Source: Gemmatimonadaceae bacterium (lineage in GTDB: Bacteria; Gemmatimonadota; Gemmatimonadetes; Gemmatimonadales; Gemmatimonadaceae). Taken from it: a stretch of 64,000 nucleotides of DNA. Where the stretch lies: assembly GCA_035527035.1 (NCBI GenBank), contig DATLBG010000129.1, forward strand, positions 6,435 through 70,434, in the 5' to 3' direction. Below the pieces are notes generated by a model. That model saw only the letters and a list, made by a program, of their open reading frames with translations. It was not told where the DNA came from and made no database searches. Positions 16,451 to 41,161 of this stretch are shown one piece after another. The position numbers were made by a program, and so were the translations under genes. Positions within the stretch are counted from its first letter, which is position 1. The number at the start of each line of letters is the position of its first letter.

Positions 16451-17967
<1,517 letters not shown>

Positions 17968-19290: not shown

Positions 19291-19314
19291 TTCTTCGTTC
19301 GTCTCGCTGCGGAC

Positions 19315-19381
19315 GGGGATGGGTGTCCCCGTCGGGCACCTACGCTACGCTAAGACGGTGCCGACGGGGACACCCATCCCC
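19315..19381 (+). repeat. Nested-hairpin repeat, copy A (minimal core)
   Basis: ggggatgggtgtccccgtcgggcac-CTAC-GC-tac-GC-TAAGAC-ggtgccgacggggacacccatcccc. A 25-bp outer stem with one bulged G. Confidence 0.85.
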
Positions 19382-19438
19382 GCCCGCCTCAGCATCTACC
19401 AGAAACATACTTCGGACGGCAACGGCTTACTGCAAATC

Positions 19439-23921: not shown

Positions 23922-23978
23922 TCGCCAAATGTAAGTCGGTTCTGGGTTGCAGGTCGTGCGGATGATGCATCATCGTGG

Positions 23979-24070
23979 GGGCACGCGAGGCATAGGCTCC
24001 CGTCGCGTGCTACGCGAGCAAACTGCGCTCGCTAGGACGCACGCTGTGGGAGTCTATGCCTCGCATGCCC
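23979..24070 (+). repeat. Nested-hairpin repeat, copy B (TAGGAC variant)
   Basis: gggcacgcgaggcataggctcccgtcgcgtg-CTAC-GCGAGC-aaactgc-GCTCGC-TAGGAC-gcacgctgtgggagtctatgcctcgcatgccc. The arms are complementary with a few mismatches. Confidence 0.8.
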
Positions 24071-24161
24071 TCCGGCACATTTGGCAACCGCCCGGCCGGC
24101 AACCCAAATCAGCAGGCTTTCCCGGGCGCAACCCCGCGGGCTCGGGTTACCGCATAGAGCG

Positions 24162-24686: not shown

Positions 24687-24757
24687 GAATGCCCTCCAAC
24701 CACTCATGCCGGCGGTAACGGGAAATGTCACACGACACACGCCGTCCGCGGGATCTT

Positions 24758-25321
24758 TCAGACCAGCAGCGAAACAGTCCGCTTGATCTCGTCGACGTCG
24801 TACCCGCGGCGGGCCAGAAATGCGAAGAGGCGCTGGCGCGCGACGCGAGGGTCGAGGCCGGCGAGAGTCTGCAGTTTCTTGCGCGCGACTTTCTCGACAG
24901 CCGCGGCTGCGTCGACTTCTTCGGTCTCCACGACACGCTGCATGGCAGCAGTCACGGTATCGCTCGCGATACCCTTTCGCACCAGGAGCTGAGCCACGCG
25001 CCGTTGTGACGCGCTCTCGTTCACCAGCTTTCCGCGGGCGAACCGCTCGGCATACGACGCATCATCCAGCAGTCCTGAGCGCTCGAGCCGTTCGACGGTC
25101 GCAGTGACTTCCTCCGGCGGATACTCGCGCTGCACGAGCTTCCGTCTGAGGTCGCGCACGGTGTAGCTCCGCGCGGTCAGCAGCCGCAGCGCGTACTCGT
25201 GCGGCGAGCTGTGCGGCCGCGCGGGGGTGTCGGCGTCCGCGGAGGGGCGGCCGTAACGGCTTGGGCGGGTCACAGCGGAAGGCTGAAGGAGTCCGTTTTC
25301 GGCATCGCCCGCCACGCACAC
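24758..25321 (-). CDS. recX: Recombination regulator RecX
   Basis: YALRLLTARSYTVRDLRRKLVQREYPPEEVTATVERLERSGLLDDASYAERF, the three-repeat RecX pattern, immediately downstream of recA. Confidence 0.85.
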   Translation of the reverse strand: MCVAGDAENGLLQPSAVTRPSRYGRPSADADTPARPHSSPHEYALRLLTARSYTVRDLRRKLVQREYPPEEVTATVERLERSGLLDDASYAERFARGKLVNESASQRRVAQLLVRKGIASDTVTAAMQRVVETEEVDAAAAVEKVARKKLQTLAGLDPRVARQRLFAFLARRGYDVDEIKRTVSLLV

Positions 25322-25352
25322 ATCAGGCAGCCAGCCTGAAAACCCGAAACTC

Positions 25353-26405
25353 CTACTCCTCGACGGCCTCGACCGACTCGACGACCTCGACTTCGCCCGG
25401 CGGCCGGATGCCGAGCACGACCTTCACCTTCTCTTCCACCTCGGCGAGCATCGGCGGGTTGTCCTTCAGGAACATCTTCGCGTTCTCGCGGCCCTGGCCG
25501 ATCCGCTGTCCGTTGTAGCTGTACCAGGCCCCCGACTTGTCGATGATCCCCGACTCCGACGCGATGTCGAGCACCAGCGACGCATGGCTGATACCCTCGG
25601 CGTACATGATGTCGAACTCCGCCTGCTTGAACGGCGGGGCTACCTTGTTCTTCACGACCTTAACGCGGCAGTGCGAGCCCGTGACCTCCTCTTTCTCCTT
25701 CACCGCCGCGATGCGCCGGATGTCCAACCGCACCGATGCGTAGAACTTGAGCGCCTTGCCGCCGGTGGTCGTCTCGGGGTTGCCGAACATGACGCCGATC
25801 TTCTCTCGCAGCTGATTGATGAAGATCACGGAAGTCCGCGACCGGGCGATCGCACCCGTAAGCTTGCGCAGCGCCTGACTCATGAGCCGCGCCTGGAGGC
25901 CGACGTGCGAGTCGCCCATGTCGCCCTCGATCTCGGCTTTTGGCACGAGCGCGGCCACGGAGTCGATGACTACAACGTCCACCGCACCGGACCGCACCAG
26001 GATCTCGCAGATCTCGAGAGCCTGCTCGCCCGTGTCCGGCTGCGACACCAGCATGTTCTCGACGTCCACTCCCAGCTTGGCGGCGTAGTCGGTATCCAGC
26101 GCGTGCTCGGCATCGATGTAAGCCGCCACGCCGCCAGCCTTCTGCGCGTTGGCCACCACATGCAGGCAGAGCGTGGTTTTGCCGCTGGACTCGGGTCCGT
26201 ATATCTCGGTGATCCGCCCCCGGGGAATCCCGCCGACACCGATCGCGGCGTCGAGATTGATCGCGCCGGTTGGAATCGCGTCCACCCGGACCCGCGAATC
26301 CGAGCCCATCTTCATGATGGAGCCCTTACCGTGGGCTTTCTCGATCTGGGCGATGGCGAGGCCGAGGGCCTTTTTCTTCTCTTCCTGCATTGCGGGCGAA
26401 GGCAT
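25353..26405 (-). CDS. recA: Recombinase RecA
   Basis: [27 protein letters not shown] and [22 protein letters not shown], canonical RecA. Confidence 0.98.
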
Positions 26406-26425
26406 AGGGGGAGTCCTCTAACAGG

Positions 26426-26453
26426 TGACTAGTGACTGGTGACTAATGACTAG
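26426..26453 (+). repeat. Tandem heptamer repeat GTGACTA GTGACTG GTGACTA ATGACTA in the recA leader
   Basis: Read directly. It lies 21-48 nt upstream of the recA ATG (26405), between an AT-rich putative promoter region and the GAGGA Shine-Dalgarno. Confidence 0.85.
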
Positions 26454-26509
26454 CCACCCCAGAACGCAGGATTTACGTATACCGAACAAAATACGAAAGC
26501 TGCCCGAAA

Positions 26510-26887
26510 TTAGCAAATGGAATCTCCGGCGTCGAAGGCGTTGGGGACGTGCTTCACCTTCACCGCCCGCCCGGTCTTCAGGATCCCGATAACGTCGAAC
26601 CGGTAGTCTTCGCCAGGCAGCCCATGCCGGGCAATCCAGACCTGGGCGGACCGCCGGAGTTCGCGCTGCTTGCGCCAGTCCACGGCCTGGACTGGATCGC
26701 CGAACTCGAGGCCGGCGCGGGCCTTCACCTCGACGAAAATCACGGTCCCGCGCTGCTGGGCGACGATGTCGATGTCGCGATGGCCGTTGCGGTACCGCAG
26801 GGCGCGGATCCACCAACCCTTACTGGCGAGCCAGCGCGCGGCCACGCGCTCACCAAGCTCACCAAGTGCCCTTCTGGTCGCCGACAT
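26510..26887 (-). CDS. yraN: YraN-family (UPF0102) endonuclease-like protein
   Basis: GELGERVAARWLASKGWWIRALRYRNGHRDIDIVAQQRGTVIFVEVKAR, a PD-(D/E)xK-type YraN pattern. Confidence 0.8.
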   Translation of the reverse strand: MSATRRALGELGERVAARWLASKGWWIRALRYRNGHRDIDIVAQQRGTVIFVEVKARAGLEFGDPVQAVDWRKQRELRRSAQVWIARHGLPGEDYRFDVIGILKTGRAVKVKHVPNAFDAGDSIC

Positions 26888-26984
26888 GCCGCGGATTCTG
26901 CGGCATGCCGGCGCTTAGTGCGTCATCAAATCGTTGAGGGGATTACCGATCGCTTCGGGCTAATGGCTTCGGCCGATAGAGGCG

Positions 26985-28175
26985 CTACCGGATGGAATCG
27001 AGCCGGAGGACGTAATCGCCCGTCGGCCGGCGTGGGGCAAGCGAGTTTGCCCGGATCACGTACTCACCGGAAAACGGAAGAGTGACGTCGAGTCTGGAAT
27101 GCGTGCCACCCGCGCCGTCATCCGCGGACTCGATCGCCGTGAACACCCCGTTGGTAACGGTCCCGATGGACAGGAAGGCGTCGAAATCGTCGGACCGAAG
27201 CGTGATGCGAATCGTCTCCCCTGCCCGCCCGACGTACGTCCACAAATCGTATGGGGTACCGTCGCGCATCTTGGGGTCCGACCCGTCCAGCTCCCCGCGA
27301 ACGACCGAGTTCGCCACAAGCACGCCGCTCCCCGCTCCGCTGCCGGCAAGCCATGGCAGACGCCCACTGGATCGGAGGCTGACAGTGTAAGTGCCGCTGC
27401 GGTCGGGATGCCTACGCTCGGCGCGCGCGATGTACTCGCCATCCGACGGCACGCGATACACGATCCGCGCATTGAGCCCCCCGCCGTCGTTGTCGCTCTG
27501 CGCGACGCGGGTGATCCCCTGCGCGCCCACCGAATACAGCGTCAGAAATGCGTCGAACTCGCTGGACCGCATGTCGAGGGTGAGCGTTTCCCCTTCGCGC
27601 GCGACGTAGCGCCAGTCGCCTTCGGCTGCGCCTAGTCTCGCCGTCGCCTCCGAGTTGAGCGTTCCGGTCATGGTGCGGCCGGAAACAAGCAGTCGCGGAC
27701 CCGGGACTGCCGGCTTGGCGTCGTCCACGGGCTTGGCGCCTGCCGGGAGTGGTGCCGGCCCGGCCACGGTCCGGTTCGACCGTACGCTGACGCGATACGC
27801 GCCGGTCTCGCCGCGCTCCGTTGTCGTGACCGTGATGAGATAGTCGTCGGTCTCGGGCAGCGTGAGCTCGACGCGCGAGTCGCTCCCGCTGCCTCCATCG
27901 TCGTCGCGGGCCAGCAGCGGGCTCGAGCCGCCGGGATACCGCTGCACCATCATGTAGGAGTCGAACTGAATCGAGCGCACGGTCACAACGATCTTCTCGC
28001 CGCGAACGCCGGAATACGTCCAGAGATCGAAATGCGCGCCATTGGACATCCTGCTGTCCGCCCTGGTCAGCGCGCCGCTCATGGCTTCGTTGGCGCCGAT
28101 GCGTGATTGCGCAGTCGCGGCCGGGGCGCAAACCAACAGGGCGAGGCCGGCTACGGTCGTAGACAGTCGGGTCAT
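26985..28175 (-). CDS. Secreted protein with three tandem pre-peptidase C-terminal (PPC)-like domains
   Basis: Start set to MTRLSTTVAGLALLVCAPAATAQS (signal peptide). There are three units of about 110 aa, each of the type G.L...D......DLWTY.G..GE.i.i.lrS.eFDafl......DDDGGg..dsR....lp..geY.i.v. The ORF extension to 28388 runs into repeat copy H. Confidence 0.65.
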   Translation of the reverse strand: MTRLSTTVAGLALLVCAPAATAQSRIGANEAMSGALTRADSRMSNGAHFDLWTYSGVRGEKIVVTVRSIQFDSYMMVQRYPGGSSPLLARDDDGGSGSDSRVELTLPETDDYLITVTTTERGETGAYRVSVRSNRTVAGPAPLPAGAKPVDDAKPAVPGPRLLVSGRTMTGTLNSEATARLGAAEGDWRYVAREGETLTLDMRSSEFDAFLTLYSVGAQGITRVAQSDNDGGGLNARIVYRVPSDGEYIARAERRHPDRSGTYTVSLRSSGRLPWLAGSGAGSGVLVANSVVRGELDGSDPKMRDGTPYDLWTYVGRAGETIRITLRSDDFDAFLSIGTVTNGVFTAIESADDGAGGTHSRLDVTLPFSGEYVIRANSLAPRRPTGDYVLRLDSIR

Positions 28176-28229
28176 GCCCGGGCACGTTGCGAACTTCACG
28201 CCACTGGCTCCGGCTCGGTGCCGGGCGAG

Positions 28230-28356
28230 GCTCCGTCGGTCTGCCGGCGGCCTCTCTGCTGGCGCTACGCTCGCCAGGGCGACGGTGGAGATCGCAGGTC
28301 GCGGTGGGTGCGAGCTAAGACGCGCCTGCAGAGAGGCCACCGCCAGCCCTCGGAGC
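28230..28356 (+). repeat. Nested-hairpin repeat, copy H (long-loop subtype)
   Basis: gctccgtcggtctgccggcggcctctctgctggcg-CTAC-GCTCGC-[35 nt]-GCGAGC-TAAGAC-gcgcctgcagagaggccaccgccagccctcggagc. The arms are imperfectly complementary. Confidence 0.7.
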
Positions 28357-28453
28357 CCCGCACTGCCGCGGTACCAGTGGCAGGGCACGATTCACGGGCA
28401 GACTTCGAGGGCCCGCATCGCACGGCCCGTGTCCGAGCCGCTAGTGATGCCCG

Positions 28454-28578
28454 GCGCGGGGTGGGGCCCGGGTCGTCCCAAGGCGGCGTCTTAGCTCGCA
28501 CCAGTCGCAAATCGCAAACTCGAACCGTCCGCCTGGCGAGCGTAGCCGCCGAGGACGACCCGGGCGCCACCCCGCGCG
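28454..28578 (-). repeat. Nested-hairpin repeat, copy G (long-loop subtype, inverted orientation)
   Basis: gcgcggggtggggcccgggtcgtcccaaggcggc-GTCTTA-GCTCGC-[36 nt with GTCGCAA ATCGCAA ACTCGAA]-GCGAGC-GTAG-ccgccgaggacgacccgggcgccaccccgcgc. Confidence 0.8.
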
Positions 28579-28594
28579 CGCACCAAAACGAAGA

Positions 28595-31141
28595 CTACTG
28601 GCGCGGGCCGACGATGCGGTCCAGCTCTTCCAGGCCCATGAGCACATCGCGCGGCCTTGATCCATCGGGCGGGCCGAGTACTCCCGCGGCGTGGAGCTGG
28701 TCGATGATCCGGGCCGCGCGGCCGTATCCCACCTTGAGCCGGCGCTGCAGGAGGGACGTGGATCCCTGCTGGTGCTGGATAACGGTTTCCGCGGCCTCGC
28801 GAAACAGCTTGTCGCGATCGCCCTCCGCTTCGTCCTCGCCCTCCGCCCCTCCCTGCTCCGCGACCTCGCGCTGGCGGACGAACTCCAGGATGTCTTCCTC
28901 CGTCGCGACCGACCCGGACATGAGCGCTTCCTTGCGAACGCGGTTTTTCTCGTCGAACCAGGAAGTCAACCGCTCGGTGTCCTCGTTGGAGATGAACGCA
29001 CCCTGAATTCGCGACGGCTCCGCCTTGCCTGGCGGAATGAACAGCATGTCGCCGTTGCCGAGCAACGATTCGGCGCCGATCCCATCGAGAATCGTCCGGC
29101 TGTCCACCTGCGACGCCACTCTGAACGCGATCCTGCTCGGGAAGTTCGCCTTGATCAGACCGGTGATCACGTTCACGCTCGGCCGCTGCGTCGCGAGAAT
29201 GAGGTGAATCCCGATGGCGCGCGCTTTCTGCGCGAGCATTGCCAGCGGCCGCTCCACCTCGCCCTGCACAGTCATCATGAGATCAGCGAGCTCGTCTATC
29301 ACCAGCACGATGTACGGCAGGATTCCGCCGGTGTACTCGAGGTTCTCGAACGCGACGTCTGCGCGCTTGGGCTTCGACAGCTTCGCCCCGTCCTGCACCT
29401 TCCGATTGAAGTCCTGGATGTTGCGCGCGCCGTTGGCCGCGAGCAGCTGATAACGGTCCTCCATCTCCAGCACCGCCCACTTCAGCACGGCCGCCGCGTC
29501 GCGGTTTTCGGTCACGACCTTGTGCCGCAGGTGCGGGAGCACGTTGTACACGCTGAGCTCGACCATCTTCGGATCCACGAGCAGGAAGCGCAGCGTCTGC
29601 GGCGTGTGCCGGTAGATGAGGCTCGTGATCAGAGTGTTGACGCATACCGACTTCCCGGATCCCGTCGCGCCCGCGATGAGCAGGTGCGGCATCTTCGCCA
29701 GGTCGGCGATGACTGGATGGCCTTCGAGATCCTTTCCGAGAATCATCGGCAGAGCAGCCCGCGCGGTCTGGAAATCCTTGTGATCCAGCAGCTCGCGGAA
29801 GCCCACCATCTCGGCGGTCGGGTTGGGAACTTCGACGCCGACGGCGCCACGACCCGGGATTGGCGCTACGATGCGGATGCTCGCTGCGCGCATCGCCAGC
29901 GCAAGATCGTTGGCCAGGTTCGCGATCTGCCGGACCTTCACTCCCGCGGCGGGCGCCACCTCGAACTGCGTGACCACCGGCCCGGTCGTCCGGCCTATCA
30001 ATTCGCCCTCGACCTTGAAGGTGCGAAGCGCCTCCATGAGCTGAACGCCCATCGCGTCGAGCTCGCGCTTCCCGATGTCCGCATTTCGCGCCGGTAGCGC
30101 AGCGATCAGCTCCGGCGGCGGAAGCTCGTCGTCCGCTTCGCTTCGAAAAAGGAATGGAGCTGTCGTGGCCGCCGCCGCTCCGCCGCCGCGCGCAGGCGCA
30201 GGCGGCTGCTTGGGCTTCCGCTCCCTCGGCGGCCGGTCCGGAATCGGTGCGGACTGCGGCTCGATTTCCGGCGAGTCGTTCAGCAGTCCGAGATCGAGCG
30301 CCGGCATCTCTTCAGGAGCCGGCTCCAGCGCGCGCGCGACCGACGTGGCGGAAACTTCGGCCGCAGCAGCCTTGGATCCTCTACGCATGTGCGGTACCGC
30401 AGCGACCGTCTCGGAGTCGTCGGGCGCGAGAGGTCTGGCCCGTCTTCCCACGAGCAGTCGAACCGGATTCCAGGATAGCGTTCCCGCCATGAGAGCGCTC
30501 AGCGCCAGCAGCCAGATGATCCACGCGCCGGCGTTGCCCGCGGCTCGCAGCAGGTAGTACGCGGCGAACCCGCCCCACATGCCCGACAGCGCGCTCTGCT
30601 CCGCGGCGCCGCCGAGCGTGAAGCCGAACGCCACGGGTAGCAGCACGACCATCCCGAACAGGAAGACCAGCCACGAGCGATCGGTGCCGCGGTCGAGCCG
30701 GCCGAACAGCGTCATCGCGTGGGCGGCGAGCGCCACGGGAATCAGCACCGCCGCCGGCCAGCCGAACAGCGTCGTGACCGGGCGGGCCAGCGCTTCGCCG
30801 AGCGAGCCGAAGCTGCCTCGCAGATCGGCTTGGCCGTCGGGGCTCGCGTTCAGTAGACCGAATCCGTGAACCGCGAGCGCGCCGCCGATGAAGATCGCAA
30901 ACAGCAGGAGCGCTATCGCCGCGACCTCCCTCCGTACCTCGTCAGACCGGGAGAAGACCTCCTCCCCGTCGCTGCTAGCCGCCCCCGGCTCCGAGCGGGA
31001 CGATCTGCCGGTCGCTGTAGACGGGGACAACAGAGAACGAATCCACCGCGGCACAGAACGCGACGTCGTCGCCGAATCCTGCGGCGAGGAGCGCTTGCCC
31101 GTGGTTCGAGTCTTGGAGGAGCTTCGCGATGTTCTCGCCAT
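28595..31141 (-). CDS. ftsK: DNA translocase FtsK
   Basis: N-terminal TM helices, a Pro/Ala-rich linker, the motor domain HLLIAGATGSGKSV...VIDELADLMM, and a C-terminal gamma domain (SLLQRRLKVGYGRAARIIDQL). The start is uncertain. The ATG at 31141 overlaps the comB 3' end by 167 nt, and GTG 31054 or TTG 31030 are alternatives. Confidence 0.9.
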   Translation of the reverse strand: MARTSRSSSKTRTTGKRSSPQDSATTSRSVPRWIRSLLSPSTATGRSSRSEPGAASSDGEEVFSRSDEVRREVAAIALLLFAIFIGGALAVHGFGLLNASPDGQADLRGSFGSLGEALARPVTTLFGWPAAVLIPVALAAHAMTLFGRLDRGTDRSWLVFLFGMVVLLPVAFGFTLGGAAEQSALSGMWGGFAAYYLLRAAGNAGAWIIWLLALSALMAGTLSWNPVRLLVGRRARPLAPDDSETVAAVPHMRRGSKAAAAEVSATSVARALEPAPEEMPALDLGLLNDSPEIEPQSAPIPDRPPRERKPKQPPAPARGGGAAAATTAPFLFRSEADDELPPPELIAALPARNADIGKRELDAMGVQLMEALRTFKVEGELIGRTTGPVVTQFEVAPAAGVKVRQIANLANDLALAMRAASIRIVAPIPGRGAVGVEVPNPTAEMVGFRELLDHKDFQTARAALPMILGKDLEGHPVIADLAKMPHLLIAGATGSGKSVCVNTLITSLIYRHTPQTLRFLLVDPKMVELSVYNVLPHLRHKVVTENRDAAAVLKWAVLEMEDRYQLLAANGARNIQDFNRKVQDGAKLSKPKRADVAFENLEYTGGILPYIVLVIDELADLMMTVQGEVERPLAMLAQKARAIGIHLILATQRPSVNVITGLIKANFPSRIAFRVASQVDSRTILDGIGAESLLGNGDMLFIPPGKAEPSRIQGAFISNEDTERLTSWFDEKNRVRKEALMSGSVATEEDILEFVRQREVAEQGGAEGEDEAEGDRDKLFREAAETVIQHQQGSTSLLQRRLKVGYGRAARIIDQLHAAGVLGPPDGSRPRDVLMGLEELDRIVGPRQ

Positions 31142-31718
31142 ACTTCCTGTCTATGAGAGCGCACGCGGTAGCGCCGTCGTTGGTCGCGACCTCGTTGAGA
31201 CCCTTCTGAATAGCGCGAACATAACGTCCCGCGCAACCCGCATCTTCAAGCGTGAAGCGCCGCTCGTGCCCGGAGCAGAGAATAACCACGTCCGTCTCGC
31301 TGCGGATGGCCGCGCGCAACATGGCCGCGACCGCCGAGAAGTTTACGTATGACGCGACTACGATGTCGCGCGCGCCCTGCGCCGCGAGCACCGCGCCGCT
31401 CCCGTTCGTCGTCGTGAGCAACACCGTCTTGCCCTGCACGCGCTCGGCCGTGAACTCTCCCGGCGAATTGCCGAGGTCGAACCCGGGGATCGGCAGCATC
31501 TTCTGCTCCCCCGCGAGCAGCACGTCCTCGCGGCCCAGCTGCTTGGACTGCGCTACCGCCTCGTCCGACGTGAGAAAGGGGACGATGGCGCGCGCGCCGT
31601 TGGCGAGCGCCGCGGCGATTGTCGTGGACGCGCGGAGAACGTCCACCACCGCGACCACACGACCGGTGATGTCGGCCGGCGTGAGCTGCTGATAACCGAA
31701 GAACACATCGACTCTCAC
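30975..31718 (-). CDS. comB: 2-phosphosulfolactate phosphatase family protein (ComB-like)
   Basis: [28 protein letters not shown]...LLAGEQ...[10 protein letters not shown]...LLTTTNGS. Start set to the GTG at 31718, giving a GTGA overlap with the accC stop. Confidence 0.75.
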
Positions 31719-33073
31719 GCCACGACGTCCTTCATCAGGTTCGGCTCGCGCTCGAGGAACTTGGTGTCGACGTTCCCCGACTGGAACAGCGGATTCTCCA
31801 TGACGCGCGCGAGGAACGGGATGGTCGTCGTGACGCCTTCGATGATGAAGCTCTCCAGCGCCATGTGCATCCTGCGAATGGCTTCCTGCCGGTCCCTGCC
31901 CTGGCAGATGACTTTCGCCAGCAGCGAGTCGTAGTACGGCGGCACCGTGTACCCCGCGTACACGTGGGTGTCGAGCCGCACGCCGGGCCCGCCAGGCGGG
32001 TGGAACGTGTCGATACGCCCCGGAGACGGCTGGAAGTTCTTCGCCGGATCCTCGGCGTTCACCCGGCACTCGATCACGTGTCCGCGCAGCGTCGGCATGG
32101 ATTTGAAAGACAGCTTCTCCCCGGCCGCGACGCGGATCTGCTCCTTCACGAGGTCGATGCCGGTCAGCATCTCGGTAACCGGATGCTCCACCTGGATGCG
32201 CGTATTCATCTCCATGAAGTAGAACGAGCGATCCTCGTTGAGCAGCATCTCGATGGTGCCGACGCCTACGTAGTCGATCGCCTTGGCGCCGCGCACCGCG
32301 GCGTCGCCCATCTGCGCGCGGAGCTCCGCGTTCAGCGCGGGACTCGGCGCCTCCTCGATCAGCTTCTGGTGCCGGCGCTGCACGGAGCAGTCGCGCTCGC
32401 CGAGGTGCACGACGTTGCCGTGACGGTCGCCCACGATCTGAAACTCGATGTGCCGCGGCCGCTCGAGGTACTTCTCGACGTATACGTCGGAATTGCTGAA
32501 CGCGGACAGCGCCTCGGACCGCGCGAGCTGGAACGAGCGCGCGAAATCGTCCGCGTCCTTGGCGACGCGCATCCCCTTGCCCCCGCCTCCGGCGGACGCC
32601 TTGATGATCACGGGGAAGCCGATGGTCCGCGCGAACTCGAGCGCCTCGTCCACGTCCTCCACGGGGCCGGGCGTGCCCGGGATGATCGGAACGCCGACTT
32701 TCTGCATCGCATCCCGGGCCGACGCCTTGTCGCCCATCACGCGGATCTGGGACGGCGTCGGGCCAATGAACTCAATGTTCGATGCCGCGCAGGTCTCGGC
32801 GAACTCCGCGTTCTCCGCGAGGAAGCCGTAGCCGGGATGGATCGCGTCGGCGCCGGTGATCTCCGCGGCCGCGATCAACCGGGGGATCTTGAGGTACGAG
32901 TCACGCCCGGGGGGCGGGCCGATGCACACGTCGTCGTCGGCGAACCTGACGTGCAGCGACTCCCTGTCGGCCTCGCTGTACACCGCCACAGTCTGTATCC
33001 CCAGCTCCCTGCACGCGCGTATTACCCGCAGAGCGATCTCGCCCCTGTTTGCTATCAGCACCTTCTTAAACAT
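31715..33073 (-). CDS. accC: Acetyl-CoA carboxylase, biotin carboxylase subunit
   Basis: [26 protein letters not shown]...ATP-grasp...[14 protein letters not shown]. Confidence 0.95.
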
Positions 33074-33091
33074 TGCAGGTCCGGGTGTGGA

Positions 33092-33197
33092 CGTGCGCGG
33101 TGTGATCGGACGTGAGTCCGGCCCGGGCGCTACGCGAGCAAACTACGCTCGCTAAGACGCGCCCTTGACCGGACCCACGTCCGATCTTCCGCGCACG
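33092..33197 (+). repeat. Nested-hairpin repeat, copy C
   Basis: cgtgcgcggtgtgatcggacgtgagtccggcccgggcg-CTAC-GCGAGC-aaactac-GCTCGC-TAAGAC-gcgcccttgaccggacccacgtccgatcttccgcgcacg. It starts 19 nt upstream of the accC start codon. Confidence 0.85.
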
Positions 33198-33328
33198 TCC
33201 GGCGGCGCTGTTTGGGGGCGCAACGAGCACGGGGCGAGATCGCAGCGGGTTCGCGCGAACCAGGGACGGTAGGTGACTACGGCGGACCAGCAGGATGCGC
33301 GCGAGCCGCAGCCGCACGGAGGGGGAGG

Positions 33329-33433
33329 GGTCAGGGGCGGGCGCGGACGGGTGTCCCATGCAGGCCCGTCTTAGCGAGCGCAGTTTGCTCGCGTAGGGCC
33401 AGCATGGGATACCCGTCCCGCCCGCCCCTGACC
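33329..33433 (-). repeat. Nested-hairpin repeat, copy D (inverted orientation)
   Basis: ggtcaggggcgggcgcggacgggtgtcccatgcaggccc-GTCTTA-GCGAGC-gcagttt-GCTCGC-GTAG-ggccagcatgggatacccgtcccgcccgcccctgacc. Confidence 0.85.
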
Positions 33434-33444
33434 ACACGCACCGA

Positions 33445-34600
<1,156 letters not shown>

Positions 34601-34608
<8 letters not shown>

Positions 34609-35077
34609 TGGGCGCGATCCGGAACAGTATCTGTCCGTACTCGACCGGGTGCGCGTCCTGCGCGACCATCTCGCGCACAGTGCCGTCGAACTCGGACTCG
34701 ATTTCATTCATGATCTTCATCGCTTCGATGATGCAGATGATCTGTCCCTTCCTCACATTGTCACCGACCGCGAGATACGGCTTCCCGCCGGGCTCGGGCG
34801 AAGCGTAAAACGTTCCCACCATCGGCGACTTCGCTTCGAGGAGCGCTTCCTTGGGGGCTTCCTGCTTAGGCGCCGGCGCGGCCGCTGCGGCGGGCGCGGC
34901 GACAGGTGCCTGCGCGAGCGGAGCTGCTGCAATCAACGGGGCGGATGCCACGGGCGCGTGCTGCGGCGCCTTCGATATCCGGATCTTCATACCCTTGTCG
35001 GAGGATATTTCGATCGAATCCACCGTGGACCCGTCGAGCATGTCCACCAATTTTTTCACGTAACGTAAATCGAACAT
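34601..35077 (-). CDS. accB: Acetyl-CoA carboxylase biotin carboxyl carrier protein
   Basis: Ala/Pro-rich linker and the biotinyl motif CIIEAMKIMNEIE. Confidence 0.95.
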
Positions 35078-35109
35078 GATGGCTGTTTAGGGACCGGCCG
35101 CCTGGTGCC

Positions 35110-36201
35110 TCAGGCGACCTCGATTAGCTCTCTCGTGAAGTCCGTGAGAATCTCCGGACCGCCGGCACCGAGGTGAACGTCGTCCTCGATCCGGATCCCG
35201 CCCCACCCAGGGCGATAGATCCCCGGCTCGATCGTCACAACCGCGCCGACAGACAACGTCCCTTCGGCTGTCCTGGCAAGACGAGGCGCCTCATGCACTT
35301 CCAGGCCAAGGCCATGCCCCAATCCATGCCCGAACGCTTCCCCATAACCTTCGCGCTCAATGTAGCCGCGCGCCAGCGCATCGGCATCCTGCCCCGTCAT
35401 TCCAGCGCGCACTGACCCCGCCGCCAGCGCATTCGCCTGCCGTACAATGTCGTAAACCGCACTCTGCTCTCCGTTCGCGCTTCCTACCACGAGCGTACGG
35501 GTGATATCCGAGCAGTACCCGCGATACTCGGCGCCGAAGTCGAGCAGCAGGAAATCGCCGGCCTCGACGACCCGGGAAGATGATCGGGCATGAGGCAGCG
35601 CTGCGCGGGGGCCGGACGCGACGATGGACGGGAACGGAAACCCTTCGCTGCCCGCGTCACGCAACGCTTTCTCGAGCACGCCCGCCACCTGCAGCTCCGT
35701 CATCCCCGGCGCCAGCCGCGGCAACGTCGCCTGGAGCGCCTCGACCGCGATCGCGGCCGCGCGGCGAATCAGCTTCACCTCGCCCGCGTCCTTCGATTCG
35801 CGGAGTCGCTCGACGGCGTTCACGCTCGGCCGCCATTGCCGGTTTCGCCCGCCGCCGCTCTCCAGCAGACGCTGGAAATCGCGGTGAAAGATGTGCGCGG
35901 ATTCGAATCCCACCGTGGTGACCTTCGCGACTTCACCAAGAGTCGCCCACAGTCCGTTCCAGAGACTCACGGGCTCGATGCGAACTTTTGCGAGATCGCC
36001 CACCTCGTCGGCCACCTGCGTGGCATACCGGAAGTCGGTGATGAAGAACAGCTCGCGCTGGGTCACGAGCAGCAGCGCGCTGCTCCCGGAGAATCCCGTC
36101 AGATAACGCACGTTCGGCAGGCTCGTGATCAGCAGCGCGTCGAGGTCGCCGGCGATGTCCTCCCGGAGCGCGGCGATGCGCCGCTCGCGCGCGTCAGTCA
36201 C
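35110..36201 (-). CDS. pepP: Xaa-Pro aminopeptidase/dipeptidase (M24B family)
   Basis: Creatinase-like N-domain, then DFGAEYRGYCSDITRT, HGLGHGLGLEVHE and VVTIEPGIY. Confidence 0.85.
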   Translation of the reverse strand: MTDARERRIAALREDIAGDLDALLITSLPNVRYLTGFSGSSALLLVTQRELFFITDFRYATQVADEVGDLAKVRIEPVSLWNGLWATLGEVAKVTTVGFESAHIFHRDFQRLLESGGGRNRQWRPSVNAVERLRESKDAGEVKLIRRAAAIAVEALQATLPRLAPGMTELQVAGVLEKALRDAGSEGFPFPSIVASGPRAALPHARSSSRVVEAGDFLLLDFGAEYRGYCSDITRTLVVGSANGEQSAVYDIVRQANALAAGSVRAGMTGQDADALARGYIEREGYGEAFGHGLGHGLGLEVHEAPRLARTAEGTLSVGAVVTIEPGIYRPGWGGIRIEDDVHLGAGGPEILTDFTRELIEVA

Positions 36202-36644
36202 GCTCGCGCGGCGTCGCGCAGCGTATTGACGAGCCCCCTGAGCGCGAGCTCGTAGCCGTATGCGCCGAAGCCGCAGACGACCGCAACGGCGTCCTCGGCC
36301 AGCATCGAGCGCCGCCGATGTTCCTCGCGGGCGTAGATGTTGGTGAGGTGCATCTCGACATACGGAAGGCTCACGCCGACCAGCGCGTCACGAATGGCGA
36401 GGCTGGTGTGGGTGTACGCCCCGGCATTGATGACGATGCCGTCGGCGCTTTCGGTCAGCGCGTGAATCGCGCTTATGAGGTCGCCTTCCCCGTTGTGCTG
36501 GGAGCAGTCGACCTCGACGTCCAGCTCCCGGGCCACGGCAGCGAGCGTCTCCTCGATCTCGCCGAGCGTAGTGTGTCCGTAAATGTGCGGCTCGCGCCGG
36601 CCGAGGAGGTTCAGGTTGGGGCCGTTGATGATCGCGATCTTCAT
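36198..36644 (-). CDS. aroQ: Type II 3-dehydroquinate dehydratase
   Basis: MKIAIINGPNLNLLGRREPHIYG...QHNGEG..I..IH......IVINAGAYTHTS.A..DA. Start at the internal Met, giving an ATGA overlap with the upstream stop. Confidence 0.9.
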   Translation of the reverse strand: MKIAIINGPNLNLLGRREPHIYGHTTLGEIEETLAAVARELDVEVDCSQHNGEGDLISAIHALTESADGIVINAGAYTHTSLAIRDALVGVSLPYVEMHLTNIYAREEHRRRSMLAEDAVAVVCGFGAYGYELALRGLVNTLRDAARA

Positions 36645-38353
36645 GGTCCGCGCAGGCCTCGCAGCCACGCGTCGAAATCAGCCAGCTCGGCGGTCGAAGG
36701 ATCGAACGTCGGGTGCGGCCCCGACGTGCGAGGCAGTATGCTCGGCTGCTCCGCCGGGGGAAGCGGCGGCGGCGCCGGCTGCGCGTCGGGAAACCCGAAC
36801 GGATCGTCGGCGGGCTGCAGCTCGGGGTCGCTATCAGGGAGCGGCACGAAGTCGGACCGCAGCCGCGAGGGCGCGCGGGAATTTCGAGCCTGGCTTCCCC
36901 GCGGGCGGGCGCCGTCCATCCGCGCGAACAGCTCCCGCACCGATCGCGGTTGGGGCAAAAACGCGGGCGGCTCCGGCGAATGTGGAAGCTCTTCTTCCAG
37001 CGGCTCGACCGCGAGCGTCGTGCTTTCCTGTGCAGCCACAAGCTCCGCTATCTCCGCTGGCTCGGCCGTCGCGTCCGTCTCCGCTGCTTCGGCTCGCTCG
37101 GCGCGTGCTGCCGCGACGGCCGCGTCGCGACGCGCGGCGATGACGGATTTGATGCTCTCGATCTTGTCGAGCAGCGGCGCGTCTTCCGGCCGTTGCTCGG
37201 AGAGCTGCAGAAGAAGCTCGAGCGCTTCGTGCGGGTAGCCCTGCTCGAGGTAGAGATCGGCCATGGTCTCGGTGACGAAGGGCGCGGCTGACTCCATCAC
37301 GCGCTCTTCCGTCTGAATCAACTCCTCTACGCTGACCGGCGCGGGCAGCGGGTGAGCCGCGACATCGACTGGCTCGACCGGTAACTCCTCCGGGATGATC
37401 TCGAAGGAGTTCTCGGGAATGAAGTCCAAGGCGGCCGCATCGTGGGCCGGAGACATCTCGGTTGGCTCCGCAGACTCGCTTGCGGCGGAGATCTCCAGAT
37501 CTCCCGCGAAGTCAGCGGATTCAGATACCGCCTCCGGCGAGATCTCTTGCTCGGATTCCAGCTGGGCTTCCTCGTCTACTACCGCTTCTACTACCGCGGC
37601 GGGCTCGGGCGCAGCAGCTGGCGCCGGGTCAAACGTTTCCTCGCTCACCCGTTCGGCCGACGTCTCCGGGGCGGGCTCCGTCACGTGCGGGTAATCCGCT
37701 CGCGTTTCCTCGTTCGCATCAACTGTGTCGGCCGTCTCGATAACGTCCGCGCTCTCAGGCACGTCCGACGGCTCAGGCGCGTACCAATCAGTTGTCGCGT
37801 CATCTTCGACCAGCGAAGTCGGTTCGAGCACTATAGCGGCGGGTTCGATCGCGGCGGCCTCGGCGCTCGGAGTGCCGGCGATCTCCGGGGCATCTACTTG
37901 AGCGGGCTCGCGGATGGCTTGCAGCGCAGCCGTCGCCGCCTCGTTGTACGGGTCCGCCTCGAGCGTGCGGGCGTACCACCGCTCCGCGCCCGGCACGTCG
38001 CCGGTGTCGCGAGCGATATCGCCGAGGTAGCGGAGCGCGACGATGTTTTCCGGATCCAGCGTGAGCGCCCTTTCCAGCGCTGTTCGCGACTCCTCGAAGT
38101 CCCCGGAGTCGTACAGCGCCTGTCCGAGGACGATGTGCCCGCTGATATGCCCGGGGATCGCGGCCAGCTGCGTCCGGCACATGTCAGCGGCGCGCTGAGG
38201 CTCGCCTCCCTTGCGGTACTCGTTCGCCAGCGACGCGAAGTAGCGGTGCGGGCTCTCCTCGAACTTTCGCTCGAGCTCGTCGAGTCTCGCCACTATCTGG
38301 GTGTCTTGGAATCCGGCACCGATGGAAGTTACCCGGATGGCGTACTCGGTCAA
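36641..38353 (-). CDS. TPR-repeat protein with a long acidic Pro/Ala/Glu-rich low-complexity middle region
   Basis: N-terminal TPR-like helices (GEPQRAADMCRTQLAAIPGHISGHIVLGQALYDSGDFEESRTALERALTLDPENIVALRYLGD), an acidic linker, and a further TPR-like segment. Confidence 0.6.
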   Translation of the reverse strand: MTEYAIRVTSIGAGFQDTQIVARLDELERKFEESPHRYFASLANEYRKGGEPQRAADMCRTQLAAIPGHISGHIVLGQALYDSGDFEESRTALERALTLDPENIVALRYLGDIARDTGDVPGAERWYARTLEADPYNEAATAALQAIREPAQVDAPEIAGTPSAEAAAIEPAAIVLEPTSLVEDDATTDWYAPEPSDVPESADVIETADTVDANEETRADYPHVTEPAPETSAERVSEETFDPAPAAAPEPAAVVEAVVDEEAQLESEQEISPEAVSESADFAGDLEISAASESAEPTEMSPAHDAAALDFIPENSFEIIPEELPVEPVDVAAHPLPAPVSVEELIQTEERVMESAAPFVTETMADLYLEQGYPHEALELLLQLSEQRPEDAPLLDKIESIKSVIAARRDAAVAAARAERAEAAETDATAEPAEIAELVAAQESTTLAVEPLEEELPHSPEPPAFLPQPRSVRELFARMDGARPRGSQARNSRAPSRLRSDFVPLPDSDPELQPADDPFGFPDAQPAPPPLPPAEQPSILPRTSGPHPTFDPSTAELADFDAWLRGLRGP

Positions 38354-38436
38354 TCAGAGCGCCGCGCGACACTTGCTCATAAGACGTTGTGCCCGATAGC
38401 TTTCGAGGCTGTTTCGCCTCTCTTTAGGAGCTAGCC

Positions 38437-40293
38437 TTGCTGCAGGGAATGCGCGCCGCCACAAAATGGGTCTGGATCTTCATCGCTGCGGCTTTCGTTG
38501 GCGGCTTCCTGCTCATGGACACCTCGGGTTTAATCGGCCGTTCGGCCGTCACCCCTACGACTCCCGTCGCCACGGTCAACGGCGAGGAGATACTCGCGAC
38601 GCGGTGGTACACGCTCATCCAGCAGCTCGAAACCGAGGAGACGCAGTCGAGCGGACGCACGCTAACGCTCGAGGAGCGCGAGCGACTCGCTGATCAGGCG
38701 TACGAGCAGCTGGTCGGAGAAGTGCTGCTTCGCCAGGAATATCGCCGACGCGGCATCAAGGTCACGAACGCTGAGATCGAGAACGCTGCCCGGTACAGCC
38801 CGCCGCCGCAGCTGATGCAGAGTCCCGAGCTCCAGACGGAAGGCCAGTTCGATCCAGTGAAGTACCAGCGCTTCCTCGCAAGCCCGCTCGCGCGGCAGCA
38901 GGGCGTGCTGCTTCAGCTCGAGCAGTACTACCGGAGCGAGATTCCCAAGCAGAAGCTTTTCGAGCAGGTGCTCGGGGACGTTTACGTCACCGACGCGCGG
39001 CTGTGGACCTTCTGGCGCGACACGCACGACTCGGCGCAGGTGACCTTCGTGAAATTCGCGCCTGAAACGGTGGCAGATTCGCGGGTCACCGTGACCGATG
39101 CGGAAATCCGCGCGTTCTTCGACAAGCATCGTGACGAATTCGACCGCCCCACGCGCGCGGTCGTTTCGGTGATGACGATCCCGAGGATTATCACCGCCGC
39201 GGACAGCGCCGCGGCTCGCGCGAAGGCCGTCGCCATCAAGCGCGAGATCGAGACGGGCGTGCGAACGTTCGAAGACGCTGCCCGGGCCGAGTCGGCCGAC
39301 ACGGTTTCCGGCTCCGATGGCGGGAATCTTGGCCGCGGCGGCCGCGACCGGTTCGTCGCGGACTTCGAGACCGCGGCCTACGGGCTCGCGCCGGGCCGCA
39401 TCTCCGACCCCGTGCTCACGCCCTTCGGCTATCACCTGATCAAGGTGGACTCCCGCAATGGCGACACCCTCTCGCTGCGCCACATTCTGCTCAACATCGC
39501 GCAGAGAGAAGAGTCGGCGGTGCTGACGGACCGCCGGGCTGATTCGCTGGCGCGCATCGCCGCGACCGCGGACGATCCTGCCAAGTTCGACGAGGCGTCG
39601 CGCACACTGAGAATTCCCGTCACGAGAGGCGTCGCGCTCGAAGGCGAGCCGCTGACGATCGGCGGACAGTACATCCCCAGCGTCGGCGCCTGGGCCACGG
39701 GCGGCGCCGAGCAAGGCGACATCAGCGACCTGTTCGACTGGGACGAGGGGTACGCCATTGCCCGCATCGATTCACTCATCGAGGGCGGCGTGCCAAAGCT
39801 CGACGCGGTCAAGGAAGATGTCCGCGCCCGGATCGCCCGCGGGAAGAAGCTCGACATCCTCGCGGCCGAAGGGCGTGCTTTCGCTGGAGCTGCGGCTTCG
39901 AGCTCGCTCGAGCAGGCCGCTGCTGCGCGCAATCTGTCAGTCACCCGGACGGACGTGTTCACACGCACGACGCCCGCCCAGGGACTCGGCCGTCTGAACG
40001 AGGCGATCGGGGCCGCGTTCGTGCTGCCGGTGGGCGCGGTCAGCGCGCCGGTCCGGACCGAGGACGCCGTGTTCGTGCTGCGCGTGGATCGGCGCACGCA
40101 GGCGGATCGCGCGGAATTCGAGAGGCAGAAGGTTGCGCTGCGCGAGCAGCAGACCAATGCCTATCGCCAGCAGCGGCTGCAGGAATTCATCGCGAACCTG
40201 CGCGACGTCGCGGACATCGACGACAACCGCCGCAACATCGCGCGCGCCCAGGCCCAGGCCGCCAATCTCCCCGCCGTCCCCCTCACGCCCTAG
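38437..40293 (+). CDS. ppiD: Periplasmic chaperone / peptidyl-prolyl isomerase (PpiD/SurA-like, parvulin domain)
   Basis: N-terminal TM anchor, a SurA_N-like region, and a parvulin motif GGNLGRGGRDRFVADFETAAYGL..G.ISDPV.TPFGYHLIKV. Confidence 0.8.
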   Translation: MLQGMRAATKWVWIFIAAAFVGGFLLMDTSGLIGRSAVTPTTPVATVNGEEILATRWYTLIQQLETEETQSSGRTLTLEERERLADQAYEQLVGEVLLRQEYRRRGIKVTNAEIENAARYSPPPQLMQSPELQTEGQFDPVKYQRFLASPLARQQGVLLQLEQYYRSEIPKQKLFEQVLGDVYVTDARLWTFWRDTHDSAQVTFVKFAPETVADSRVTVTDAEIRAFFDKHRDEFDRPTRAVVSVMTIPRIITAADSAAARAKAVAIKREIETGVRTFEDAARAESADTVSGSDGGNLGRGGRDRFVADFETAAYGLAPGRISDPVLTPFGYHLIKVDSRNGDTLSLRHILLNIAQREESAVLTDRRADSLARIAATADDPAKFDEASRTLRIPVTRGVALEGEPLTIGGQYIPSVGAWATGGAEQGDISDLFDWDEGYAIARIDSLIEGGVPKLDAVKEDVRARIARGKKLDILAAEGRAFAGAAASSSLEQAAAARNLSVTRTDVFTRTTPAQGLGRLNEAIGAAFVLPVGAVSAPVRTEDAVFVLRVDRRTQADRAEFERQKVALREQQTNAYRQQRLQEFIANLRDVADIDDNRRNIARAQAQAANLPAVPLTP

Positions 40294-40356
40294 CTCGCGC
40301 GTGCGACGTTAGCCGGCCGGGATCTCCGACAAGCCCGGCGCAGCATGGTCGCGCTA

Positions 40357-40459
40357 GGTGCGAGCCTGTGCAGGAGATCCTCTGCGCGCCCTACGCGCGC
40401 AAACAACAACGACGCGCGCTAAGACGGGCGCTTCGAGGACCCCTGCACAGGCTCGCACC
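40357..40459 (+). repeat. Nested-hairpin repeat, copy E
   Basis: ggtgcgagcctgtgcaggagatcctctgcgcgcc-CTAC-GCGCGC-aaacaacaacgac-GCGCGC-TAAGAC-gggcgcttcgaggacccctgcacaggctcgcacc. Confidence 0.85.
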
Positions 40460-40470
40460 ACATGCATTAT

Positions 40471-40572
40471 GGTCGGGCTGGGCGGGCCGGGGCTCCCGTA
40501 AGGCCCCGTCTTAGCGAGCGCAGTTTGCGAGCGTAGGGGCCGACGGGAGTCCCGCGCCCGTCCAGCCCGACC
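40471..40572 (-). repeat. Nested-hairpin repeat, copy F (inverted orientation, inner stem degenerate)
   Basis: ggtcgggctgggcgggccggggctcccgtaaggcccc-GTCTTA-GCGAGC-gcagttt-GCGAGC-GTAG-gggccgacgggagtcccgcgcccgtccagcccgacc. Confidence 0.8.
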
Positions 40573-40604
40573 GGGCGCGCGACAGCGCGCCCGAGCGGTT
40601 CGGA

Positions 40605-40871
40605 CTAGATGAGCCGTTTGGGCTCGGACGAAGACGCGTCGCGGTCGCGAGATTCGGTCGCGCGGCGGGCCTCGAGCTCGGCCTCAGTCAGGCGCGGCTT
40701 GTCGTTCATCCCGTCCTGCACGTCGCGCGTGGCGTCGTTGATGTTCTTCTTGAACTCGCGGATTCCCTTGCCCATCGAGCCCGCGATCTCGGGGATCCTC
40801 TTCGCCCCGAACAGCAGCAGGACGATGAGCATGATCAACAGGATCTCTGGCATGCCTAAGTTGCCGAACAT
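40605..40871 (-). CDS. tatA: Twin-arginine translocase subunit TatA/E
   Basis: MFGNLGMPEILLIMLIVLLLFGAKRIPEIAGSMGKGIREFKK. Confidence 0.9.
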   Translation of the reverse strand: MFGNLGMPEILLIMLIVLLLFGAKRIPEIAGSMGKGIREFKKNINDATRDVQDGMNDKPRLTEAELEARRATESRDRDASSSEPKRLI

Positions 40872-40879
40872 TTAACCCC

Positions 40880-41161
40880 CTAGAAAAGCGAGCGCGCGAT
40901 GAGGTACGCGATCAGCACCCCGACGAGACTCAGCAGAGACACGTCGAGGGCGACCGGCCCGAGCGCGAACTTCAGAATAATCAGGTCTAACGTTATCGGT
41001 CCGAACGACGGAGTCACACCCGTCGTGAAAAACTCCTTTGCCGCGCCCGCCGGCAGAAAGATGCGCGCGGCCTGCGTCAGCGCACCCCCGACGATGAACC
41101 CGATCGCGAGCGTGATTCCGTAGAAGCCGGGGCGCTTGCTCGACTGCCCTCGCGGCGCCAT
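40880..41161 (-). CDS. Small membrane protein, DUF4321-like
   Basis: 93 aa, two or three hydrophobic helices, and a pattern GITLAIGFIVGGALTQ...GPITLDLIILKF. The family assignment is from memory. Confidence 0.5.
   Translation of the reverse strand: MAPRGQSSKRPGFYGITLAIGFIVGGALTQAARIFLPAGAAKEFFTTGVTPSFGPITLDLIILKFALGPVALDVSLLSLVGVLIAYLIARSLF

Follow-up and report, generated by a model that had tools for sequence, protein, structure and literature searches.

Dispersed nested-hairpin repeats of Gemmatimonadaceae combine a nearly invariant, strand-specific core with outer stems that drift but stay paired

We analysed 64 kb of a chromosomal contig from a Gemmatimonadaceae metagenome-assembled genome (MAG), hereafter the window, and found that it carries nine copies (A to I) of an interspersed hairpin whose 29-nt core, CTAC-6 bp stem-AAACTGC-stem'-TAAGAC, sits at the tip of a long stem whose outer part is copy-specific. 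The hairpins are probably a family of dispersed, non-coding palindromic DNA repeats resembling repetitive extragenic palindromic (REP) sequences and bacterial interspersed mosaic elements (BIMEs), which would be recognised as a folded single strand by an enzyme of the HUH/Y1 type. The family is abundant and real, and it is apparently specific to Gemmatimonadaceae and previously undescribed. Although this type of element is familiar, its frozen, strand-specific core, its drifting but paired outer stems and its strict doublet geometry are notable.

The core pattern CTAC-GCNNGC-loop-GCNNGC-TARGAC matched eight cores in the window, with copy A, whose core is truncated, being the ninth element. A covariance model, R1, which was built from 59 copies in other genomes and run over the window with its filters off, recovered exactly these nine copies at 40-86 bits (E <= 3e-9), with nothing further below E = 0.08 except the opposite strands of the same nine loci (Table 1). 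An earlier reading of this DNA from its letters alone (the sequence-only reading) had listed nine hairpins, and all nine were present at or within a few bases of where it had placed them. Two of its details needed correction, namely the extent of copy B, which was too short (the arms reach 68 nt, 23943-24106), and the compensatory inner stem, to which copy F is an exception, since its GCTCGC...GCTCGC is not complementary on the CTAC strand. When each copy was folded as single-stranded DNA and compared with 200 dinucleotide-preserving shuffles, none of the 200 shuffles was as stable as the native sequence in any of the nine cases (z = -4.0 to -12.5), and RNA folds of all nine copies also gave long hairpins, at -66 to -110 kcal/mol. 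Since the arms beat shuffled G+C-rich sequence in all nine copies, a comparison that had been set beforehand, the earlier observation of hairpins stands.

The hairpin consists of four layers. At its tip is the apical 6-bp stem, closed by the loop AAACTGC or AAACTAC (7 nt long in 142 of 157 cores), and a second layer brackets this stem with bases that are unpaired and do not vary, CTAC 5' of it and TAAGAC 3' of it, with CTAC (GTAG on the opposite strand) being unpaired and invariant in 59/59 aligned copies. The third layer comprises P3, which is a G+C stem of 5-6 bp, then an internal loop (3x3) that is most commonly TTC/TGC, and the semi-conserved stem P2 (GTATCCTC/GAGGACAC), which contains a conserved A.C opposition; together, these make up about 17 nt of semi-conserved sequence on each side of the core (..GGTATCCTC-TTC-GGCG, core, GCGCC-TGC-GAGGACACC..). 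The outer stem, of about 17 bp or more, is copy-specific and without sequence conservation: information content is about zero farther than 17 nt from the core, and no conserved motif, including any R-box-like sequence, was found at the hairpin base. The self-complementary unit measures 80-165 nt, and the two arms that flank the 29-nt core have a median length of 34 nt each. The bracket had been described as the only invariant part, and its invariance holds within this genus-level group, but the loop AAACTGC and the ~17-nt flanks are also conserved or semi-conserved. In more distant Gemmatimonadaceae (RecX ~55% identical), the elements that adjoin recX retain P2, the internal loop and P3 but carry a different apical domain of 60-85 nt.

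Pairing was maintained in 85.6% of cells across the 59 copies, compared with 61% when shuffled and ~40% when the partner was slid by 1-3 columns. The covariation score was 0.57 versus 0.16, with double changes in 21 of 26 pairs and support for all four helices. Arms scored a median of 18 against their own partner but a median of 1 (95th percentile, 5) against the partners of other copies, and identity between 14-nt outer arms averaged 4.7 of 14, the chance level, both within and between MAGs. These data bear out the earlier description of a conserved centre flanked by arms that are self-complementary yet copy-specific, as well as that of a compensatory inner stem, for which the combinations GA/TC, TC/GA and GC/GC were all seen.

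The sequence-only reading had also remarked that this layout is the reverse of a classical miniature inverted-repeat transposable element (MITE), and the termini are indeed the least conserved part of the hairpin. MITEs, as deletion derivatives of a DDE-type insertion sequence mobilised via terminal inverted repeats, could produce dispersed, mostly intergenic palindromes of ~100 nt that are polymorphic for presence or absence, and a possible 3-bp GAG repeat at the copy A site would suit them. However, we consider this origin very improbable given that information falls to about zero beyond 17 nt from the core, that the outer arms are unrelated between copies, that the conserved part is an asymmetric centre with a covarying stem, and that no transposase gene lies nearby.

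Two other readings of the architecture were rejected. Apparent CTAC...CTAC nesting, which would have implied nested or recursive copies, proved on inspection to be a pattern-matching artefact of the P3 stem, and insertion of the core into pre-existing palindromes was dropped when no frame lacking the apical domain was found in ~1.1 Mb. We also observed that the outer arms of all copies, at 17-34 nt from the core, are compositionally skewed, with a G-rich 5' arm (47% G, 29% C) and a C-rich 3' arm; this skew is directional although the arm sequences are otherwise random, and a palindrome could equally skew oppositely. In addition, 21 of 93 copies carry GCAT, frequently as GGCATC, in the 20 nt that adjoin the hairpin base on its 3' side, compared with 7 of 93 on the 5' side (comparison loci L001-L104 plus the window; L-numbers denote comparison loci, mostly from Gemmatimonadaceae relatives).

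Across 157 cores (~105 independent loci), the apical stem has its central dinucleotides in no more than six combinations. Written as 5' half/3' half, the Watson-Crick combinations are GA/TC (62 copies), GC/GC (25), the flipped TC/GA (24), GG/CC (2) and CC/GG (1). The remaining combination, TC/TC, was found in 43 copies at 29 loci and opposes T.C and C.T on the CTAC strand, which corresponds to tandem G.A/A.G on the GTAG strand; its mirror image, GA/GA, was never observed (0 copies). The conserved A.C mismatch at arm position 14, in P2, is likewise a G.T wobble on the GTAG strand, and the commonest 3x3 internal loop, TTC/TGC, reads GCA/GAA there. Given 43 copies of TC/TC against none of GA/GA, together with the G.T wobble, the constrained object is therefore one folded strand rather than a duplex site, and, judging from these mismatch classes, that strand is 5'-GTCTTA-stem-loop-GTAG-3'.

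Constraint on one strand is also a property of attC-like and other site-specific recombination sites that serve as folded-strand substrates of a tyrosine recombinase. In such sites, as here, the structure is kept though the sequence changes, with unpaired bases as the fixed determinants, and a pair of 6-bp inverted arms separated by an asymmetric 7-nt spacer is reminiscent of the core site of a recombinase. This explanation is nonetheless the least probable of those that we weighed, since the elements do not form same-orientation arrays, are not accompanied by cassette open reading frames (ORFs) but by rarA, alaS, recX, ftsK, accC and pilT, occur in mixed orientations and have no conserved R-box-like sequence at the stem base; furthermore, no integrase was seen in the window, as judged from the annotation of element-flanking genes only.

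The sequence-only reading had proposed selection on a folded RNA or single-stranded DNA structure. While a folded single strand is supported, RNA is not. The orientation of single copies relative to tandem flanking genes was random, at 10:9 and 10:11, and on the transcribed strand there was no excess of G.U (25) over A.C (27); in the outer arms, G.U/A.C stood at 39 against 56, with no excess in either sense. None of the 12 terminator-like sites in 22000-41500 overlapped an element, and their count equalled the shuffled expectation; moreover, no T-run followed the hairpins. Because orientation is random, G.U is not in excess and no T-run terminator coincides with an element, we favour recognition as folded single-stranded DNA, in which case the strand asymmetry would belong to the element and not to local transcription. 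Nothing that we saw pointed to selection of resident copies as RNA, and this possibility is disfavoured.

A role as mRNA hairpins, whether as 3'-end stabilisers, U-tract-independent terminators or RNase III/RNase E sites between cistrons, would fit the tight intergenic placement of the elements (D and G follow a stop codon at 12-18 nt, and C and B precede a start codon by 17-22 nt), the great stability of their stems, covariation of the kind found in structured RNA, and the tandem G.A and G.U on the GTAG strand, which are also typical of RNA. E. coli REPs stabilise upstream mRNA. We regard such a role as quite improbable, however, since, in addition to the G.U and terminator counts above, the GTAG strand is transcribed in only about half of the single copies, and an RNA would not present the same invariant unpaired bases in both orientations. 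Nor did an Rfam family match: over the whole window there were no matches at gathering thresholds, and a permissive scan returned only miRNA-precursor hairpin models, the best at 50 bits versus a gathering score of 168 and other families at 20.7-37 bits versus 70-137.

In 28/28 pairs of neighbours less than 400 nt apart, CTAC..TAAGAC is followed by GTCTTA..GTAG, which places GTAG on the outside (head-to-head, HH), with no tandem pairs and none with GTAG inside. Two spacing classes were seen, one in which the members nearly abut and one in which they are 66-306 nt apart, and the arms of the two members of a doublet are unrelated. A doublet in one genome is often a single copy in another (G/H of the window versus L018; L020 versus L078; L089 versus L061; L042 versus L008; L056, L085 and L082 versus L101). 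In L168 and L107, a whole doublet occupies a junction where the genes of the window, L166 and L167 overlap or nearly abut, and no source copy for the arms of the L168 doublet was found in the related loci compared. In REP families, HH dimers predominate (dimers being mostly HH or tail-to-tail), and tandem (head-to-tail) dimers are rare or absent (PMC3733652).

Comparison of orthologous spacers, which had been suggested earlier, yielded 93 orthologous element pairs across MAGs when assigned by flank synteny, as well as filled and empty sites between relatives. Parsing succeeded for 66 of these pairs, in which identity was 95% in the core, 89% in the inner arms and 73% in the outer arms, compared with 66% in the 30 nt beyond the hairpin and 84% in the mostly coding 200-nt flanks. 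Sixty-five outer-arm pairs had changed: 43 on both sides with Watson-Crick pairing kept, 18 on one side and 4 in other ways. The E/F doublet makes such compensated arm changes visible across three species. With outer-arm identity at 73% and 43/65 changes compensated, the arms therefore drift almost neutrally yet concertedly while the core is held. Many copies persist at orthologous sites across species of ~75-85% nucleotide identity.

Such persistence could reflect host-domesticated structural DNA, with the core being bound or processed by a host protein (such as a topoisomerase, nucleoid protein or replication/repair factor) when the hairpin is extruded or exposed by replication. BIMEs offer a parallel, as they bind gyrase or IHF. 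This explanation overlaps with the REP/BIME-like one and differs mainly in what maintains the copies, namely selection in place rather than transposition. It draws on the contrast between core (95%) and adjacent spacer (66%) in orthologues, on the retention of copies across ~75-85%-identical species, on the fact that arms are never common within a genome and hence show no recent spread, on the independence of orientation from flanking genes, and on the element with the same middle stems that adjoins recX even in distant family members. We consider it possible though somewhat unlikely, given that copies are gained, lost and partially deleted between close relatives without obvious consequence, that one copy lies inside a gene, rarA, and that the strand-specific G.A class fits one folded strand more easily than a duplex site.

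Gain and loss were most clearly seen at the copy A site, which is filled in the window, L168, L165 and L107 but cleanly empty in L166 and L167. The indel corresponds to the whole hairpin including its outer arms, with no arm remnant in L166 or L167, and the possible GAG repeat was seen at this one clean filled/empty junction only; intergenic filled/empty pairs at 77-87% identity have spacers too diverged for precise junction alignment. Four relatives carry an element in the recX-recA spacer, where the window has none.

Copy I adds 30 residues to the RarA of the window, between two conserved blocks, relative to homologues. This RarA is 100% identical to a protein that NCBI attributes to a Gemmatimonadaceae MAG; an exact look-up of the RecA protein gave no record. 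In close relatives (87-93% identical), this insert exhibits four different in-frame partial deletions, giving a graded series that runs from the full insert through both outer arms without the core and the outer 3' arm only to almost nothing, and the annotated length of RarA varies from 452 to 506 aa among close relatives. The form with only the 3' arm (L165) equals the window sequence minus 75 nt between two TCG repeats and is better read as a deletion. On sequence comparison, the series would go back to a single insertion in an ancestor, parts of which were later deleted in frame and independently, as expected of a long palindrome. Partial deletion also explains intergenic "empty" sites that seemingly keep one arm. 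We had considered that outer arms might be copied from the target upon insertion, as suggested by one-arm "empty" sites in L004, L101 and L165 and by GGCGGACG in the distant L161, but rejected this as a general rule since the copy A site is cleanly empty without a remnant and the rarA series fits partial deletions.

A scan of one genome per species with the degenerate core pattern (exact matching) gave at least 104 stretches, all of which were in seven Gemmatimonadaceae MAGs among the matches listed. R1 found 153 matches in 641 kb of loci from those MAGs, so the further copies beyond the window, whose presence had been set beforehand as a test, do exist; R1 also matched metagenome contigs with close recX relatives. 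Density was ~1 copy per 10 kb in loci chosen independently of the element and 1 per 7 kb in the window, which extrapolates to hundreds of copies per genome. The core pattern had no match in viral contigs and the full element none in plasmids. A literature search with the motif gave only one unrelated plant-pathology paper, searches on Gemmatimonas repeats returned nothing relevant, and Gemmatimonadetes were not found in the REP, REP-associated tyrosine transposase (RAYT) and HUH surveys examined. Thus, the family matched no already described repeat or non-coding RNA family in Rfam, the plasmids, the viral contigs or the literature searched. Many MAG contigs start or end within an element (L001, L006, L050, L053, L062, L070, L072, L074, L075, L083, L084, L097 and L099); the elements are assembly breakpoints in MAGs, and spurious ORFs that read through them inflate ORF calls.

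Table 1. Hairpin copies in the window, in order of position. Scores are those of model R1; z is from the single-stranded DNA fold comparison.
Copy	Hairpin	Strand	Core	R1 (bits)	z	Location, arms and relatives
I	17162..17249	+	CTAC-GCGGGC-TTC-GCCCGC-TAAGAC at 17192-17216	51.7	-6.2	in frame within rarA (16447-17967, minus strand)
A	19309..19387	+	truncated, CTACGCTACGCTAAGAC at 19340-19356	47.9	-9.2	between 175-aa gene and CCA-adding enzyme gene; arms 27 nt, 96% complementary
B	23943..24106	+	24010-24038, TAGGAC variant	83.1	-5.5	starts 22 nt upstream of alaS start codon; 68-nt arms; orthologous copies in L018, L023, L107, L108
H (left of doublet H/G)	28230..28356	+	28265-28321, flipped stem GCTCGC/GCGAGC, 37-nt apical insert	40.4	-4.0	single element at this site in L018
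G (right of doublet H/G)	28454..28577	-	28488-28545	43.5	-8.3	ends 18 nt downstream of ftsK stop codon; arms 25 nt, 96% complementary
C (left of doublet C/D)	33090..33199	+	33130-33158	81.9	-8.6	ends 17 nt upstream of accC start codon; orthologous copy in L097
D (right of doublet C/D)	33329..33433	-	33368-33396	86.3	-12.5	12 nt downstream of pilT-family gene stop codon
E (left of doublet E/F)	40357..40459	+	40391-40425, stem GCGCGC, 13-nt loop	72.5	-8.5	E/F doublet also in L006 and L027, arm changes compensated
F (right of doublet E/F)	40471..40572	-	40508-40536, TC/TC class, tandem G.A mismatches on GTAG strand	64.6	-7.8	

Those window genes next to elements that an NCBIfam scan covered are housekeeping genes: rarA, the CCA-adding enzyme gene, alaS, recX, ftsK, accC, pilT and a peptidyl-prolyl isomerase (PPIase) gene. 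At 33092-33433, two large inverted hairpins are located between the pilT-family stop codon (33445) and the accC start codon (33073). The window has ~650 nt between copy B and recX (24107-24757) that are absent from L018, L107, L108 and L166, where the spacer is ~130 nt, and the two long ORFs in this segment gave no Pfam hit. The same site holds ~1.3 kb in L109 and L123, with L109 encoding a helix-turn-helix (HTH) protein together with a Fic-like protein (HPWPNGNGRH motif); it looks like an insertion hot spot. Between a Zip-family gene and rarA, L165 (2207-3883) and L168 (5884-9902) contain variable toxin-antitoxin genes (PemK, PIN, HicB), while in L166 and L167 the Zip-family gene is directly followed by rarA; this islet is unrelated to the hairpins. 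A perfect 19-bp inverted repeat at 59558-59600 (ATACTCCAAACGGGATGCA / TGCATCCCGTTTGGAGTAT, 5-nt loop, ~50% G+C), beside the gene at 59615-60124, also lies outside the hairpin family (R1 E = 0.08-0.4).

In the mechanism that we favour, the apical module (the 6-bp stem-loop with GTCTTA 5' and GTAG 3') would be the recognition site of a trans-acting protein that reads the unpaired bases and the shape of one folded DNA strand, the likeliest candidate being an HUH/Y1 (RAYT- or IS200-like) enzyme encoded elsewhere in the genome. This enzyme may once have spread the elements as whole hairpins, either singly or as GTAG-outside doublets, and resident copies are now mostly vertically inherited. Their outer stems drift near the neutral rate and would be kept complementary by hairpin-templated correction or by selection for pairing, while the core is held almost invariant; since long palindromes are deletion-prone, the elements also decay by internal deletions.

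Several observations weigh against this mechanism. The 95% conservation of the core at resident orthologous sites suggests a host-level role for which transposition is not required, and outer arms are never common to two copies in one genome, so that a recent copy-and-paste burst has left no sign. The sole clean filled/empty junction, at the copy A site, has no clear target-site signature. There is no orientation bias relative to gene direction, used as a proxy for replication direction; IS200/IS605 elements do show an orientation bias relative to replication. The polarity of GTAG is opposite to that in the E. coli REPs beside rayT, which read 5'-GTAG-GACGGATAAGGCG... (L106, E. coli K-12 247400-248400), compared with 5'-GTCTTA-stem-loop-GTAG-3' in Gemmatimonadaceae. 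Finally, when E. coli RayT served as a phmmer query, none of the 4,844 ORFs from the window plus ~1.1 Mb of related loci (~3% of each genome) matched at E <= 10, a negative that carries little weight at this coverage. The ORFs that separate distant inverted copies in L052 and L037 were DprA-like and asparaginase-like genes with no transposase, and the extra DNA beside copy B likewise held no transposase (no Pfam hit in the window; the HTH and Fic-like pair in L109).

An alternative is that the elements are RAYT-independent, vertically inherited, "self-correcting" palindromes whose frozen, asymmetric apical module is bound, on a single folded strand, by a putative hairpin-specific protein and whose long stems stay complementary through intramolecular templated repair (quasi-palindrome correction) rather than selection. 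Templated repair would explain how arms drift at the neutral rate without losing their pairing, but we hold this alternative, in both its parts, to be unlikely. If it were true, the elements would naturally report on template switching and hairpin extrusion in vivo, and they would suggest that Gemmatimonadota have a new family of enzymes that recognise hairpins. The REP/BIME-like interpretation would instead add a REP-like system in Gemmatimonadota, where our literature searches gave none. The layout of the hairpin separates a frozen recognition module, a helix that needs only pairing, and a strand that is identifiable from mismatch classes, making the family a good system for studying palindromic-repeat recognition and the long-term maintenance of inverted-repeat complementarity.

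GTAG-tagged REPs are defined by a stem of 5-13 bp, a loop of 2-20 nt, an unpaired GTAG at one end and a unit of 20-40 bp (PMC3733652). The resemblance to REPs that had been suggested from the CTAC/GTAG tetranucleotide next to a hairpin proved to extend to the 6-bp stem, the 7-nt loop, the unpaired and invariant GTAG and the complementary stem changes, and further to high copy number, mostly extragenic location, HH-only dimers, vertical persistence at orthologous sites and an occasional in-frame copy in a DNA-repair/replication gene, here rarA. Intragenic in-frame REPs occur in DNA-repair genes (PMC3733652). Unlike GTAG-tagged REPs, the Gemmatimonadaceae elements have TAAGAC (GTCTTA on the opposite strand) as a further hexamer that is unpaired and invariant, carry their stem-loop within another stem of 30-60 bp (unit 80-165 nt versus 20-40 nt) and have outermost arms that are unique to each copy; in comparison with E. 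coli REPs, GTAG is located 3' rather than 5' of the stem-loop. The 11-mer TAAGACGCGCC in the E. coli REP beside rayT equals the 11 bases after the apical stem in the Gemmatimonadaceae consensus, a match that we judged to be chance because only TAAGAC-G is invariant in the Gemmatimonadaceae family.

In REPIN-RAYT systems, the RAYT (Y1 HUH, Pfam Y1_Tnp) is usually single-copy and flanked by the repeats, and the copies in a genome form a near-identical cloud around a master sequence. Such a cloud holds only for the core of the Gemmatimonadaceae elements, with the outer arms agreeing at the chance level of 4.7/14. REPIN-RAYT systems have been described in E. coli, Pseudomonas and Stenotrophomonas (PMC3733652, PMC3116915). 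REPs nested in palindromes, namely Thermomicrobium roseum GTAG-23, Anabaena variabilis GTAG-15 and Halothiobacillus neapolitanus CGTC-1 (PMC3733652), are similar in that a REP-type stem-loop is central in a larger inverted repeat. There, however, the outer palindromes fit one consensus, whereas here only the inner ~17 nt do, and the outer ~17 bp are copy-specific with compensated evolution. No "empty" outer palindromes were found here in ~1.1 Mb, which is also the case in A. variabilis and H. neapolitanus (PMC3733652).

Enterobacterial repetitive intergenic consensus sequences or intergenic repeat units (ERIC/IRU), Correia elements and Rickettsia palindromic elements (RPE) are also dispersed imperfect palindromes of ~100-150 nt, and RPE insert in frame into genes, like copy I in rarA; those elements are conserved over their full length or at their termini, whereas here the termini vary and the centre is frozen. 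With attC sites and the subterminal hairpins of IS200/IS605, the elements share a folded single strand in which unpaired bases and helix shape matter and one strand is active, but they differ in having no integron/cassette context and no adjacent tnpA or tnpB, in their mixed orientation, and in carrying their conserved bases apically instead of at the stem base. Taken together, these comparisons indicate that the elements are best filed as working like a REP/BIME system while differing from the described ones in architecture.

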